Shown here in pieces: positions 22,355 to 27,472 of a stretch of 64,000 nt of DNA. Position numbers and translations under genes: made by a program. Source of the DNA: Candidatus Zixiibacteriota bacterium (lineage in GTDB: Bacteria > Zixibacteria > MSB-5A5 > GN15 > JAAZOE01); contig JAGLON010000023.1 in NCBI GenBank assembly GCA_023138975.1, forward strand, positions 6,131-70,130. The letters are read 5' to 3'. How positions within the stretch are numbered: the first letter of the stretch is position 1; each line of letters starts with the position of its first letter. The notes under the pieces are model-generated. The model had not been told where the DNA came from, did no database searches, and saw nothing but the letters and a program-made list of their open reading frames with translations.

Positions 22355-25300
22355 ATGAGAAACCTCACTATTATATCAGCAATCATGCTGTTGGTTTTGT
22401 TTTCTGTCGCAAATTCAACAGATTCACAATCAGGAAATCAGAACAATGAAGGCATAAGCATCGGCGAATTTCTAACGCCTGACGGTCGTTTTGACATCGA
22501 AGCGGCCCGGCAGGCCGGTTTTGAAGGCTCACTTGACATCGAGGGGTTTGATATCATACTCGACCAAAATGACGGCGCACCTCTACTGAGTTCACAAGCG
22601 GCTAATTCTGTCCCTGATGATCAGTACTGGCATGACATAACCGCACCGGATGTCGGAATGAATAGTATAGTCAGAACTTTGGCAGTCTACAATGGTGACC
22701 TGATTGCCGGGGGACAATTTACGACCGCCGGCGGAGTTCCCGCCAATTATATCGCCTGCTGGGATGGTTCTACCTGGCAGCCTCTCGGCTCAGGGATGAA
22801 TAACAGGGTCTACTCGCTGATTGTCTATAATAGTAATCTGATTGCGGCGGGTCAATTCACAACTGCCGGTGGGACTTCTGCCAACAGAATTGCCCGTTGG
22901 GATGGCTCGACCTGGCAACCCCTCAGTACGGGAATGAATAACTGGGTTACCTCATTGTGTGAGTTTAACGGCAATCTTATCGCCGGGGGATACTTCACGT
23001 ATGCCGGCGGGTTTTCTTCCTTTTTTATCGCCAGTTGGGATGGTTCGATCTGGTCCCCAATGGGCTCCGGAATGAATGCCAGCGTTTGGTCGATGACGGA
23101 ATACAACGGTGATCTGATTGTCGGGGGACAATTCACATATACCGGTGTGGATCCCGCCAACAGAATCGCCCGTTGGGATGGTTCGTCTTGGCATTCGCTT
23201 GGCTCGGGGATGAATGCCAGTGTTTTTGCTGTAACAGCCTATGGTGATGACCTGATTGCCGGGGGAGATTTTACGACTGCCGGGGGAGTTACTGCCAATT
23301 ACATTGGCAGCTGGGATGGCTCTGCTTGGCAAGCGATTGGTTCGGGGATGAATGGAACCGTGAATTCTCTGATGGTAAACGGCGAATTGTTAGCCGGAGG
23401 ATTTTTCACGACTGCCGGTGGGACTTCTGCTAACAGAATTGCCCGTTGGGATGGTTCGAACTGGCAATCACTCAGCTCTGGATTGAATAGTGTCGCGTAT
23501 TCGATGACGGTCTTTAACGATGAACTCACTATCGGGGGAAGTTTCACGACTGTTGGGGGGATTTCAGCCAACTATATCGCCCGCTGGGATGGCAGTACTT
23601 TTAAACCACTCGGGTCAGGAATGGATGCACAGATATATGCCTTGGCAATTTATAATGATGATTTGATTGCTGGAGGTTATTTTACGTCAGCCGGAGGCGG
23701 ACCGGCATATCTTATTGCTCGGTGGGATGGCTCATCATGGCAACCATTGGGCTCTGGGTTCAGCGGTGGTATTTATCCCAATGTTTCGGCGTTAACGGTT
23801 TATAATGGTGACCTTATTGCAGGAGGTTATTTCACGAATGCAGGAGGAACAGCAGCGAACAATATTGCACGATGGGATGGCTCGACTTGGCAACCGCTTG
23901 GAACAGGATTGAGTTCCATAGTATTTGCCTTTACAGTTTATAATGGAAACTTGATTGCCGGTGGCTCCTTTGAAACGGCTGGTGGTATAACAGTCAATAA
24001 TATAGCCAGCTGGGATGGTGCGTCGTGGGATTCTCTGAGTTCTGGAACTAACCATACTGTTAAGGCATTGACTGTTTATGATGGTGAATTAATTGCAGGT
24101 GGTCTTTTTACGCAATGTGGTATATCTTACCACTATTACATTGCCCGTTGGAATGGAACTATCTGGCAATCAGTAGGCAATGGAATGAACAGTAATGGTG
24201 CAGTGGAGGATTTTGTTGAATATGAAGGAGATCTGGTTGCCGTAGGCCGATTTACGGGAGCCAGCAATGTTCCTGCCAACTATATTGCCCGGTGGAATGG
24301 AAGTGTTTGGGATTCTATTGGTTCAGGAATGGATTATACTGCTGCTGCATTGACTATATACAATGGTGAGTTAATCGCCGGTGGTTCATTCTCAACAGCA
24401 GGAGGAGGAGCCGCAAACAATATAGCTCGTTGGGATGGTTCGGTTTGGCAGCCGCTTGGCTCCGGTGCTAATGAAATAGTCAAAGATCTTCTCATCTACA
24501 ATGATCAATTAGTAATAGCGGGCTTCTTTACAACTGCCGGCGAAAAATCATGTCCATATGTTGCTCTTTGGGATAAACCGGCAACTGATACCGACGGTGA
24601 CGGTGATCCCGACATGACCGATCCAGACGATGACAACGACGGTGTGGCTGATGCCTCCGACACAGATTCACTTGACCCCTCTATTTGTCAGGATGCGGAT
24701 GGCGATGGATGCGACGATTGTTCCATCGGCGCTGACGGGTTCTGCCCCAATCCTGATTACGATATAAATAACGATGGAACTGATACTGATAGTGATGGAA
24801 TATGTGATTCCGGTGACACCGACGATGACAATGATGGCGTACCCGACGGCTCGGACACAGATTCACTTGACCCCTCAATTTGTCAGGACGTCGATGGCGA
24901 TGGTTGCGACGACTGTTCCATCGGCGATGACGGTTTCGGACCCAATCCTGATTACGATGTTAATAACGATGGTACTGATACCGATAGTGATGGCCTTTGC
25001 GATTTAGGTGACACCGACGATGACAATGACGGTGTGCCCGATGGAGCGGATTCCGATCCGTTAGATCCCTCAATTTGTCAGGACGCGGATAGCGACGGTT
25101 GCGACGACTGTTCAGTTGGTGATGACGGTTTTGGACCAAACCCTGATTACGATGTTAATAACGATGGTACTGATACCGACTATGATGGTCTTTGCGATTC
25201 CGGTGACACCGACGATGACAATGATGGTGTGCCTGACGGAGCGGACACAGATTCACTCGACCCGTCTATTTGTCAGGACATCGATGGCGATGGTTGCGAC

Positions 25301-25876
25301 GACTGTTCGATTGGCGATGACGGTTTCGGACCCAATCCTGATTACGATGTGAATAACGATGGATTAGATACCGACTCTGATGGTCTGTGTGACTCCGGCG
25401 ATACCGACGATGACAACGATGGTGTGCCTGACGGAGCGGACACAGATTCACTTGACCCCTCTATTTGTCAGGATGCGGATGGCGATGGTTGCGATGATTG
25501 TTCAGTTGGCGATGACGGCTTTGGACCCAATCCTGATTACGATGTGAATAACGATGGGACTGATACTGATACCGATGGTATTTGTGATTCGGGCGATAAC
25601 TGTCCGGAGGATTTTAACCCCGATCAGGCAGACAGCGACGGTGATAATATTGGTGATGCCTGCGACTTCCTCTGCGGTGACGCTAACGGCGACGAAAGCA
25701 TAAACGTCGGTGATGCGGTCTATATCATCAATTACGCTTTTAAGGGCGGTCCGGCTCCTGACCCAATTGAAGCTGGTGACGCCAACTGCGATGAATCGTG
25801 CAACGTCGGTGATGCGGTCTATATTATTAATTATGCCTTTAAGGGCGGCCCGGTGCCATGTTTTGAATGCCCGTAA
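22355..25876 (+). CDS. Secreted beta-propeller repeat protein (14 ~48-aa blades) with Asp-rich TSP3-like tandem repeats and C-terminal dockerin
   Basis: Signal peptide; 14 'GMN..V..L..YNGDLIAGG.FT.AGG..AN.IARWDGS.W..LGS' repeats; 5 x 65-aa Asp/Cys repeats; CGDANGD dockerin. Confidence 0.88.
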   Translation: MRNLTIISAIMLLVLFSVANSTDSQSGNQNNEGISIGEFLTPDGRFDIEAARQAGFEGSLDIEGFDIILDQNDGAPLLSSQAANSVPDDQYWHDITAPDVGMNSIVRTLAVYNGDLIAGGQFTTAGGVPANYIACWDGSTWQPLGSGMNNRVYSLIVYNSNLIAAGQFTTAGGTSANRIARWDGSTWQPLSTGMNNWVTSLCEFNGNLIAGGYFTYAGGFSSFFIASWDGSIWSPMGSGMNASVWSMTEYNGDLIVGGQFTYTGVDPANRIARWDGSSWHSLGSGMNASVFAVTAYGDDLIAGGDFTTAGGVTANYIGSWDGSAWQAIGSGMNGTVNSLMVNGELLAGGFFTTAGGTSANRIARWDGSNWQSLSSGLNSVAYSMTVFNDELTIGGSFTTVGGISANYIARWDGSTFKPLGSGMDAQIYALAIYNDDLIAGGYFTSAGGGPAYLIARWDGSSWQPLGSGFSGGIYPNVSALTVYNGDLIAGGYFTNAGGTAANNIARWDGSTWQPLGTGLSSIVFAFTVYNGNLIAGGSFETAGGITVNNIASWDGASWDSLSSGTNHTVKALTVYDGELIAGGLFTQCGISYHYYIARWNGTIWQSVGNGMNSNGAVEDFVEYEGDLVAVGRFTGASNVPANYIARWNGSVWDSIGSGMDYTAAALTIYNGELIAGGSFSTAGGGAANNIARWDGSVWQPLGSGANEIVKDLLIYNDQLVIAGFFTTAGEKSCPYVALWDKPATDTDGDGDPDMTDPDDDNDGVADASDTDSLDPSICQDADGDGCDDCSIGADGFCPNPDYDINNDGTDTDSDGICDSGDTDDDNDGVPDGSDTDSLDPSICQDVDGDGCDDCSIGDDGFGPNPDYDVNNDGTDTDSDGLCDLGDTDDDNDGVPDGADSDPLDPSICQDADSDGCDDCSVGDDGFGPNPDYDVNNDGTDTDYDGLCDSGDTDDDNDGVPDGADTDSLDPSICQDIDGDGCDDCSIGDDGFGPNPDYDVNNDGLDTDSDGLCDSGDTDDDNDGVPDGADTDSLDPSICQDADGDGCDDCSVGDDGFGPNPDYDVNNDGTDTDTDGICDSGDNCPEDFNPDQADSDGDNIGDACDFLCGDANGDESINVGDAVYIINYAFKGGPAPDPIEAGDANCDESCNVGDAVYIINYAFKGGPVPCFECP
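24587..25561 (+). repeat. Five tandem 195-nt intragenic repeats (65-aa Ca-binding TSP3-like units)
   Basis: DTDxDGxCDxGDTDDDNDGVPDGxDxDxLDPSICQDxDGDGCDDCSxGDDGFGPNPDYDVNNDGT recurs with an exact 195-nt period. Confidence 0.95.
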
Positions 25877-26060
25877 ATTTGGCTGATGCCAGATAGTGAT
25901 ATTTTGAGGTAGAGCACAAGAAAACCCGGTGGAAAATATATTCTTCTGCCGGGTCTTTTCTATTTTCACGATTCTATTTCCGTCTTTACCTTTTGGAGAA
26001 AATATCTTACTTTCGGGTATAAGAGACAAATATAGACTTTATTTCAACTGGAGTTTTTTT

Positions 26061-27248
26061 ATGGCCCGAGCGTTAATACTGTTCTCTGTCGCCCTGCTGA
26101 TATTAACCGGCATCAGTTTTGCCAATCCTCCGCAATCTCTCGAACAAGCAAAAGTGCTCGCCAAACAGACCGGGAAACCGATCCTGATTGAATTTTACCG
26201 CGACGACTGAGAATACTGCGCCAAAGCCGCTCGTGAAGCGGAAAATGAACCATCCATGATCAACGCGCTTAAAGCGGTAGTTCATCTATCTTTAAGCGCA
26301 CAATATGATGAGGGTCTTAAACTCTCCTCCGATTATCAGGTAGGCAATACGTTCCCGGTATTCATACTAACCAATAGTCAGGGCGAAGTAATTTTTCGCT
26401 GGGACGGATTTGGCGGAGCCAAACGATTTGTCAATTCGCTCAAGGCTGGTATGGCTGATTTAACTTCAGTCAAGGAACGTCGGGCCAAAGTCGCCGTCAA
26501 TCCTAATTACCGAGATGCTCTTCAACTGGCCAAATATTACTCCGATACCCGCCAGTATCTTGATGCCATAACGTATTATAAACTGACACAAAAACTCAGC
26601 CCGAGCAAACAGGCTAATTACTCATATCAAATATTTTCAAACACTGCCAATGCGGTCTGGACTGACATCTGGCCCTTTGATTCGGCTATGACCGCCGCTG
26701 ATGTTGTCCTTAATTATAAGATTAATAAAAATAATATATCTAAATGCGTCAAAGTTCTTGGCCGGGTTGCCCGCCGCTCAGGAAGAACCAATGACCTGAG
26801 GAACTACCTCTATGCCGCATTAGAAGCTACCGCTAATTCGACCGATTCAAAGCTAACCTTGGCTCATCAGGAATTTGTGATCGATACTATCTTATATATT
26901 ACCGGTATCGAAGGTCGTGCGACTCGCTCCAAAGAAGCGACCCTCGGAGCCAACTGGCAAAATGACCCAAAGAAGTTTTACCCTTATGCCAAGTGGTGCC
27001 TGGAGAGGAAAGTCAATCTTAATAAAGCCGAAGCTTATGCCCGAACGGCCGCCGACAGAGCCGGTTCCGGGGCTTTCAAGGGACAGGTACTGCATACTCT
27101 GGCAAGTATTTTGGATGTCGTTGGCAAACATAAAGAGGCCGTTCGCATAATGGAAATGTCGGTCGCTGAAGACCCCACTAATCCGTATTATGCCAAAGAG
27201 TTAGATCGTATTCTTATCAACTGGTCAAAAGCGGAAAGTAAACAATAA
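26061..27248 (+). CDS. Probable selenoprotein: secreted thioredoxin-fold (UxxC) protein with TPR-like C-terminus; TGA 26208-26210 read as Sec (395 aa)
   Basis: GGAG RBS and signal peptide; SLEQAKVLAKQTGKPILIEFYRDD-[TGA]-EYC continues in frame into ORF 26256-27248; downstream cis-Pro-like loop YQVGNTFPVFIL; TPR-like helices. Confidence 0.85.
26227..26241 (+). promoter_or_regulatory. Candidate bacterial SECIS stem-loop
   Basis: CCGCT-CGTGA-AGCGG hairpin; loop starts 21 nt after the in-frame TGA and has G at its second position; stem is short. Confidence 0.55.
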
Positions 27249-27472
27249 CTTTGCCGTTTAATAAACGGTTACAGCAGCAGGAATTATAGGGTAATCATGT
27301 CCCAGATCATTCCACTGATGGGGCACATTTTCCCAAAAAAAGTGAATCTTTATAGGCAACCTGGCGTCTTTATACTACTAACTGTATTGTTTAAACTAAT
27401 TGGACGAATATATTCTAACAATTGTTGTCCTGTGATAATATAATATTGAAGGCAATTTGGGGGAGGTTTGTA

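Follow-up and report, generated by a model that had tools for sequence, protein, structure and literature searches.

Thioredoxin-fold selenoproteins with selenocysteine (Sec, U) in a UxxC motif, predicted periplasmic ones included, are a long-established class that dates back to the first prokaryotic selenoproteome surveys, and the accessible text of a prokaryotic selenoproteome inventory lists a 'thiol:disulfide interchange protein' family (PF13098, UxxC) (PMC13188914). Among the families in the 2022 and 2026 prokaryotic selenoprotein inventories (including PMC13188914) is a Trx7/PDZ family of the NF041199 type, given there with a CxxU motif and a PDZ domain. Here we describe a gene in DNA of Candidatus Zixiibacteriota bacterium (assembly GCA_023138975.1, contig JAGLON010000023.1, positions 6,131 to 70,130 of the forward strand), a stretch of 64,000 nucleotides that is called the window below and whose own genome is labelled G000. 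Positions 26061-27248 (+) of the window hold a reading frame with a single in-frame TGA, which we read as encoding an exported thiol-disulfide oxidoreductase with Sec in its active site and a tetratricopeptide repeat (TPR) domain behind it; that the locus both encodes Sec and specifies an exported oxidoreductase has, in our estimate, a probability of roughly 0.85. A preliminary description of the locus had named UxxC thioredoxin-fold selenoproteins as its precedent, and that precedent is borne out by the accessible inventory text (PMC13188914).

Like the PF13098 UxxC family, the window protein would carry Sec in place of the first Cys of a CxxC-type motif, has Cys homologues and has a putative selenocysteine insertion sequence (SECIS) within its coding sequence; unlike that family as listed, it ends in a TPR domain of about 260 residues. 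With the NF041199 Trx7/PDZ (seleno)protein, a recognised selenoprotein and the best NCBIfam match, it shares a Thioredoxin_7-type domain, but it reaches 18.7 bits where the cut-off is 300, and that over the thioredoxin part only; there is no PDZ match, and the motif is UxxC with TPRs attached; no NCBIfam model comes near its own cut-off for the read-through protein. The closest solved thioredoxin domain is that of DsbD-gamma, which is periplasmic (Foldseek template-modelling (TM) score on the target 0.60-0.72, root-mean-square deviation (rmsd) 2.4-3.1 Å, 25-27% identity). Whereas DsbD-gamma uses Cys and is fused to a membrane electron conduit, the window protein is predicted to be soluble and standalone, with Sec and TPRs and with no DsbD_TM domain. 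The order of a thioredoxin domain followed by TPRs is that of CnoX/YbbN (3qou from E. coli and 3qdn from Salmonella; Foldseek E 1.3e-4), a cytoplasmic protein that reportedly combines a redox-protective function with holdase activity. The window protein differs from CnoX in having a predicted signal peptide, a longer TPR domain and the motif UEYC, where the accessible text on E. coli CnoX gives SQHC.

An exported architecture of a Trx7-type UxxC domain with TPRs was not found in the accessible text of the 2022 and 2026 inventories, supplements aside, and the words 'TPR', 'tetratricopeptide' and 'Zixibacteria' are absent from both review texts within the same bounds. Our literature searches found nothing on this Zixibacteria thioredoxin-TPR family, which supplementary tables could list.

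A single reading frame with one in-frame TGA

The features that bear on the reading of the TGA are the following:

26061-27248 (+): predicted selenoprotein gene, complete, from translation with TGA as U; the alignment with orthologues covers residues 1-395, TGA included
26050-26053 (+): Shine-Dalgarno-like GGAG, 7 nt 5' of the ATG at 26061, from direct reading of the sequence
26208-26210 (+): UGA, putative codon for Sec at residue 50, where the motif U-E-Y-C begins, at the Sec/Cys column of the orthologues
26217-26219 (+): Cys53, probable resolving cysteine of the UxxC motif, invariant in 97 aligned sequences
26227-26241 (+): SECIS-like hairpin with stem CCGCU/AGCGG (5 bp) and apical loop CGUGA (26232-26236), from comparison of Sec and Cys forms

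Translated with TGA as U, positions 26061-27248 form a single frame of 395 codons followed by TAA, and the only in-frame TGA, at codon 50, lies in the context KPILIEFYRDD-U-EYC-AKAAREAENE. According to the preliminary description, one open reading frame (ORF), 25929-26210, terminates at the TGA at 26208-26210 in the context KPILIEFYRDD-TGA-EYC, and the frame stays open beyond it. The sequence agrees: there is no stop in the 45 nt at 26211-26255, the frame continues into ORF 26256-27248, and all coordinates given in that description are correct. Its proposal that ORF callers had split one gene also holds, with a single frame, one TGA and orthologue alignments that cross it; by sequence comparison, the locus is one putative selenoprotein gene wrongly split by gene callers.

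A Logan contig, assembled separately from the sole public run that holds the locus, shows 0 differences over 25900-27400 at a mean word depth of 16.2. As this run, a cold-seep metagenome sequenced from DNA, is probably the source sample, the identity shows only that the TGA is no assembler artefact. A sequencing error or a strain-private nonsense allele, which the preliminary description had named as grounds for giving up its reading, is untenable given the conservation of the TGA across species (next section). Among the public sequencing runs listed, no RNA run holds the locus and only the one DNA run does. A scan of the window with Rfam at gathering thresholds gave no match, and ARAGORN found no tRNA in it.

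Selenocysteine or cysteine at column 50

A six-frame search of 285 phylum genomes, in which stops were translated through, matched the read-through protein in 94 of them at E ≤1e-20. By hand count, exactly one TGA occurs in 75 of the 116 match rows and none in the other 41. Sixty loci were then read, half of them taken from the phylum search and half from a species-genome scan that used the 29-row alignment described below as query; with 14 duplicates and 2 loci that did not cover the column set aside, 44 distinct orthologous loci remained. Column 50 is TGA in 35 of these and TGC or TGT in nine. No other in-frame TGA occurs within the aligned region in 24 of the 25 Sec loci read first; the remaining one (L027) has a second TGA, 342 codons further downstream and close to where the query has its stop. 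The alignments extend from about residue 1 to residues 385-395 and cross the TGA, and the alignment of homologues that had been proposed as a check thus gives TGA or Cys at this column with both flanks conserved in frame. All 30 loci from the species-genome scan come from metagenome-assembled genomes (MAGs) labelled as Zixibacteria, FCB group or 'uncultured bacterium', or with submitters' Ignavibacteria-type names.

Protein databases hold the family in two length classes. A word-indexed search of 5.8 billion proteins returned 38 homologues, 18 of them with 382-408 residues, one a fragment of 348 residues, and 19 with 303-332 residues, including the gene call of the window itself. In an alignment of 29 homologues (A1), the motif D/E/G-C-x-x-C stands at the TGA column in all 19 other rows that cover it (the 18 full-length proteins and the fragment), and nine of nine aligned short homologues start 10-23 columns past the TGA column, with starts that vary between alignment columns 77 and 90. 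In a larger alignment of 97 full-length database homologues (A3), Cys occupies the TGA column in at least 90% and Cys53 is invariant. With HMMER, an exhaustive search over 1.84 billion representatives yielded 1025 proteins at E ≤0.001, of which 133 reach E ≤1e-30; they fall into the same two length classes. The names given by NCBI are 'thioredoxin family protein' for one long form and 'hypothetical protein' for two short forms, all from Zixibacteria MAGs.

In public databases, Sec forms therefore appear as 'hypothetical' TPR proteins of about 303-332 residues (19 of the 38 homologues) that have lost their N-terminal part and with it the thioredoxin domain; once the UGA is recognised, about one in three of the Zixibacteria genomes searched (94/285) would regain a redox enzyme. 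Most likely, this is a real, phylum-wide and mis-annotated selenoprotein family with a distinctive domain combination, encoded and acting in the established way, and the finding leaves the known mode of selenocysteine encoding unchanged.

The 44 proteins were also placed on a quick maximum-likelihood tree, built with the Sec column masked, on which Cys forms are interspersed with Sec forms. The tree requires at least six Sec/Cys changes, of which only two are forced by well-supported branches, and it pairs the Sec form of the window as sister with the Cys form of G148, a genome of the same genus in a single contig (support 96). No direction of change is drawn from the tree. As a separate observation, the family is present twice in many of the phylum genomes G239-G261 (families f16 and f17), one copy being about 40% and the other about 30% identical to the query, and most of the second copies also contain one TGA.

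A coding-region hairpin downstream of the TGA

A small hairpin had been placed at 26227-26241 in the preliminary description, and CCGCT-CGTGA-AGCGG is found at exactly those positions, with the stem 16 nt and the loop 21 nt beyond the UGA. According to the accessible text of PMC13188914, the bacterial SECIS model has a loop of 3-9 nt, an upper stem of 4-16 bp, a UGA-loop distance of 16-37 nt, a minimum free energy of ≤-7.5 kcal/mol, and a G within the first two loop positions that is usually followed by G or U. The hairpin agrees with its four geometric features, with a 5-nt loop, a 5-bp stem, G-U at loop positions 2-3 and 21 nt between UGA and loop.

Pairing follows the residue at column 50. 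Among the 35 TGA forms, all five pairs are present in 31 and four of five in the remaining four, whereas the complete hairpin occurs in 0 of the 9 Cys forms (four pairs in one, three in five, two in three). In the alignment of 25 Sec forms the proportion of paired cells is 96.8%, and shifting the 3' arm by 1-3 columns lowers it to 24-43%. Compensatory double changes occur at the closing U-A pair, to C-G in two loci (L044, L083) and to A-U in another (L046), together with one change of G-C to G-U (L039). The third positions of the codons GCC GCU CGU GAA GCG are invariant or nearly so in Sec forms only, in proteins that are only about 40% identical, while neighbouring codons (GAA/GAG, TAC/TAT, TGC/TGT) vary freely. 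This constraint on synonymous sites appears to be a stronger argument for the hairpin than the covariation. One Cys form (L080) encodes the same peptide, CEYCELAAREAETE, with GCC GCG CGC GAG GCC, which leaves three pairs; to judge from its sequence it is a natural control in which the peptide has been kept and the hairpin lost. Taken together, conservation and the synonymous-site constraint in Sec forms only argue that the hairpin is functional. It may be regarded as a compact natural SECIS with a control built in, as Cys forms keep the peptide and lose the hairpin, and could serve studies of SelB recognition.

Selenocysteine decoding and alternative readings of the TGA

Several observations weigh against our reading of the locus. 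In the G000 assembly (4.15 Mb in 108 contigs, 93.6% complete), selA was not found with PF03841, with TIGR00474 or by tblastn with the G148 protein at E 0.01. The search for selB in the same assembly found TIGR00475 and GTPase-domain matches below cut-off (EF-Tu and others), no SelB wing domains, and no selB by tblastn with the G148 protein at the same E value. ARAGORN found no tRNA-Sec in it, and the best RF01852 match (44.7 against 47 bits) falls on an ARAGORN tRNA-Leu. Three more Sec-form genomes, G031, G170 and G197, are like G000 without a selA match, all four being incomplete. The predicted energy of the hairpin, -5.7 kcal/mol alone and -7.0 when 40-50 nt are folded, passes the limit of -7.5 only with 60 nt (-8.1) and is thus borderline, and in the single sequence the fold is not significant (z-score 0.09, with 108 of 200 shuffles folding at least as well). 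The four Sec forms with four of the five pairs have lost the bottom one, and the covariation is thin, with double changes at one pair only. Lastly, the window protein resembles CnoX in domain order but not in assembly (TM about 0.2, rmsd about 20 Å, 13-14% identity).

Since the fold of the single sequence is at chance level, the weight of the hairpin rests on the comparison across species. As for the decoding genes, G000 has 37 tRNA genes with none for Asp, Asn, Cys, Phe or Ile, and in an incomplete assembly that lacks several ordinary tRNAs the absence of selA, selB and tRNA-Sec is uninformative. In G148, tRNA-Sec, selA and selB all lie within about 14 kb, so that one unassembled or unbinned piece could remove all three. 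A comparison of the selA-selB region of G148 with G000 did not show an assembly gap there, nucleotide similarity being too low, and the matching flanking genes sit inside G000 contig C21 and not at a contig end. The phylum is a consistent user of Sec, with selA in 264/285 genomes, in 193/198 of the high-quality ones and in 13/13 of the same family; selB scored over its cut-off in three of three relatives tested and tRNA-Sec in five of five. Of the Sec-form genomes inspected, 21/25 have selA, and so do all five Cys-form genomes among the first 30 loci, which makes the Cys form no sign of lost Sec decoding. We infer that Sec is decoded in this organism and that it is only the assembly that lacks selA, selB and selC. 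The search for selA, selB, selC and selD that the preliminary description had proposed thus has a mixed outcome, with a predicted Sec-containing selD present in G000 and the other three absent from an assembly that is 93.6% complete.

The same absences are what can be said for a gene that is dead or dying in this organism, its Sec machinery lost and translation stopping at codon 50: none of the searches found selA, selB or tRNA-Sec, and the Cys form in the sister genome G148 indicates that Sec/Cys switches occur in the lineage. Such a gene is hard to reconcile with a frame that is intact for 345 codons past the TGA and with a perfect hairpin. Moreover, at least four other G000 genes keep an in-frame TGA at a Sec/Cys position within open frames, among them selD, which would itself be inactivated; selA is present throughout the family, Cys-form genomes included, and the assembly is incomplete, with many ordinary tRNAs missing. 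We consider this alternative improbable. It is less probable still that the TGA is a true stop, separating an exported peptide of 49 residues from a TPR protein of 330 residues that would begin at the ATG at 26256. The public gene calls of 303-332 residues for half of the 38 database homologues, the product of the window among them, are in keeping with such a stop, which would cut the thioredoxin fold between strand 1 and helix 1. Against it, Cys forms are single proteins of 382-408 residues, the 45 nt between the ORFs are conserved as in-frame coding sequence, and the short calls start at differing alignment columns, as would happen if callers took whichever ATG/GTG/TTG codon came first.

Decoding of the UGA in some other way, by near-cognate read-through as Trp or Cys or through a local or global change of the code, would also result in an open frame, and nothing specific speaks for it. 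In G000, TGA closes 361 of the 1703 stop-to-stop frames of ≥300 aa (TAA 915, TAG 427), in accordance with the preliminary description, which had taken TGA for an ordinary stop in other genes and seen no genome-wide code change. The codon is also confined to one catalytic Cys column, the accompanying hairpin matches bacterial SECIS geometry, and selA is almost universal in the phylum; we regard such decoding as scarcely credible. Comparison of sequences shows a Sec/Cys column, a constraint on the hairpin at the level of RNA, and a fold, and on these grounds we hold it highly probable that UGA-50 codes for selenocysteine.

Other in-frame TGA codons in the genome

The selD gene of G000 (C19:227318-228238, 376 bits) has an in-frame TGA of its own in ...SCAGUASKVG... 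(GU motif), followed by a 7-bp hairpin. An ArsC-family (seleno)protein (C87:64294-64641) scores 139.9 with NF041106 against a cut-off of 85 and has a TGA at UTSC. In a DUF3179 gene (C40:16783-17802) the TGA lies in WUPLC, with GGCAU-CGUGU-AUGUC 15 nt past the UGA; the DUF3179 family is listed as a selenoprotein family in the accessible text of PMC13188914. There are six Thioredoxin_7 matches in G000, and exactly two of them contain a TGA.

A second candidate for an exported thioredoxin-TPR protein is encoded in G000 at C43:38909-39865 (-) (locus L056), with a signal peptide, a Thioredoxin_2 match of 50.4 bits and a TGA at ...KSPT-U-PWC. It resembles the window gene in having a hairpin 16 nt past the UGA, here with 7 bp and the loop CGUGAC, and the two proteins are 25% identical over 194 residues (E 3e-11); it differs in its length of 318 residues and its YbgF/BamD-type TPRs and belongs to a different family. 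Another exported protein, of 461 residues with a dockerin-type C-terminus (C38:10411-11796 (+), locus L055), has a TGA in ...TAHG-U-PSC... and no Pfam or NCBIfam match apart from dockerin. In 41 related genomes it has 33 near-full-length matches, which by hand count contain one TGA in 21 cases and none in 12, and it may represent a further unnamed Sec/Cys family.

A scan of G000 for read-through frames with UxxC or CxxU gave 150 candidates, of which eight, chosen by coding score or length, were checked against Pfam. One of these was rejected as a false positive formed by the stop of hdrC next to the start of hdrB; among the other checked candidates, one matched only a C-terminal dockerin far from the TGA and two were without a Pfam match. 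ARAGORN also reports on C35:21406-21480 (-) a tRNA with a four-base anticodon-like loop (tccc), of undetermined identity and maybe an artefact for tRNA-Gly.

Protein architecture and proposed mechanism

The predicted protein has the following features:

26061-26123 (+): Sec-type signal peptide, predicted, residues 1-21 (...ISFA|NPPQ), from sequence reading, a helix at 2-17 in the model and the hydrophobic N-termini of homologues
26133-26453 (+): thioredoxin-fold domain, DsbD-gamma-like, about residues 25-131, from Pfam, PDB profile and Foldseek
26355-26357 (+): codon of Pro99 (TFP), likely a cis-proline, invariant in A1 and directly before strand 100-104 in the model
26469-27242 (+): all-helical TPR-like domain, residues 137-394, 14 helices, from the AlphaFold model and Foldseek
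26994-26999 (+): Trp312-Cys313 (WCLER) in a TPR helix; C313 invariant in A1, W312 and C313 each ≥90% in A3

The signal peptide has neither a twin-arginine motif nor a lipobox Cys, and Sec-dependent export with cleavage after SFA21 is the probable route. In the read-through protein, Pfam finds Thioredoxin_7 (PF13899, 33.4 bits) and Thioredoxin_2 (PF13098, 27.9 bits), each with a gathering cut-off of 27 and each spanning the TGA, and several weak matches to TPR models, all below their cut-offs. PDB profile matches are to 2kuc, a putative disulphide isomerase (1e-19), and to the DsbD C-terminal domain (about 1e-15). An AlphaFold2 model was built on the alignment of the 97 full-length homologues (predicted local distance difference test (pLDDT) 96.2, predicted template-modelling score (pTM) 0.90). 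It has an N-terminal helix at 2-17 and a thioredoxin fold at 27-131, in which U50-x-x-C53 lies at the start of helix 51-62 and follows strand 41-46. The cis-Pro-like TFP of the preliminary description was recovered, with P99 invariant in the 29 aligned homologues; a cis conformation of Pro99 seems likely. The helical domain is matched by Foldseek to the superhelices of consensus TPR, OGT and LGN. Separately, the conserved lone Cys313, in an exported protein with a Sec active site, might be a third redox residue.

In the mechanism that we propose, UGA at codon 50 would be read as selenocysteine during translation, with the coding-region hairpin 16 nt downstream recruiting SelB with Sec-tRNA(Sec). 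The N-terminal signal peptide would direct export through the Sec translocon, and the product would consist of a DsbD-gamma-like thioredoxin domain (U50-E-Y-C53) and a TPR domain of about 260 residues. By analogy with thioredoxin-fold and UxxC enzymes, the protein would act as a periplasmic thiol-disulfide oxidoreductase in which the U50 selenolate attacks a substrate disulfide or an oxidised cysteine and C53 resolves the selenenylsulfide. An exported oxidoreductase of this kind is probable, somewhat less so than the coding of Sec itself. The architecture suggests that the TPR domain may hold an unfolded or peptide client, following the domain logic of CnoX/YbbN. G000 encodes a full-length DsbD (transmembrane domain and Trx7 domain) at C43:126698-127783, which could keep the protein reduced; with DsbD as reductant, it would be a protein reductase or isomerase rather than an oxidase. 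This assignment, together with a holdase-like role of the TPRs, is drawn from analogy and we offer it tentatively.

A wider picture, in which Zixibacteria would have a phylum-wide exported seleno-chaperedoxin as a periplasmic counterpart of CnoX, is an extension of the same analogy that we think rather unlikely to hold in full. If it were true, the Sec thioredoxin domain and the TPR client-binding domain would work jointly to rescue or isomerise oxidised proteins, both those of the envelope and those secreted, and the protein would be one of several exported selenoproteins, along with the UPWC thioredoxin-TPR paralogue and the HGUPSC dockerin-type protein, that share a CGUGA-loop SECIS 16 nt past the UGA.

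Genomic neighbourhood

Upstream, the gene at 22355-25876 specifies a beta-propeller protein that is secreted, bears acidic repeats rich in Cys and has a C-terminus of the dockerin type, and a terminator-like hairpin ends the gene; downstream lies a gene for a CBM9/DUF5916 protein, which is common only to the two closest Sec-form relatives. The preliminary description was right that the selenoprotein gene adjoins a large Cys-rich secreted protein, but its suggestion that the enzyme folds this neighbour found no support, as conservation of flanking genes across 30 loci stops at the closest relatives. In the 1.5-kb flanks of these loci, no flanking gene cluster was found in more than five loci, all of them close relatives. 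A function based on an operon and the link to the upstream Cys-rich protein were accordingly dropped for want of synteny. What stands of the earlier reading is a signal-peptide thioredoxin-TPR UxxC protein with probable Sec read-through and an adjacent putative SECIS, and its weaker parts are the link to the folding of the neighbour, which found no support, and the Sec machinery, of which this incomplete assembly shows selD.

The upstream propeller protein ends in a duplicated C-terminal module (25664-25876; Pfam Dockerin_1). This module occurs in dozens of large secreted proteins per genome, with at least 40 matches in most related genomes, and looks like a phylum-typical sorting or anchoring tag.

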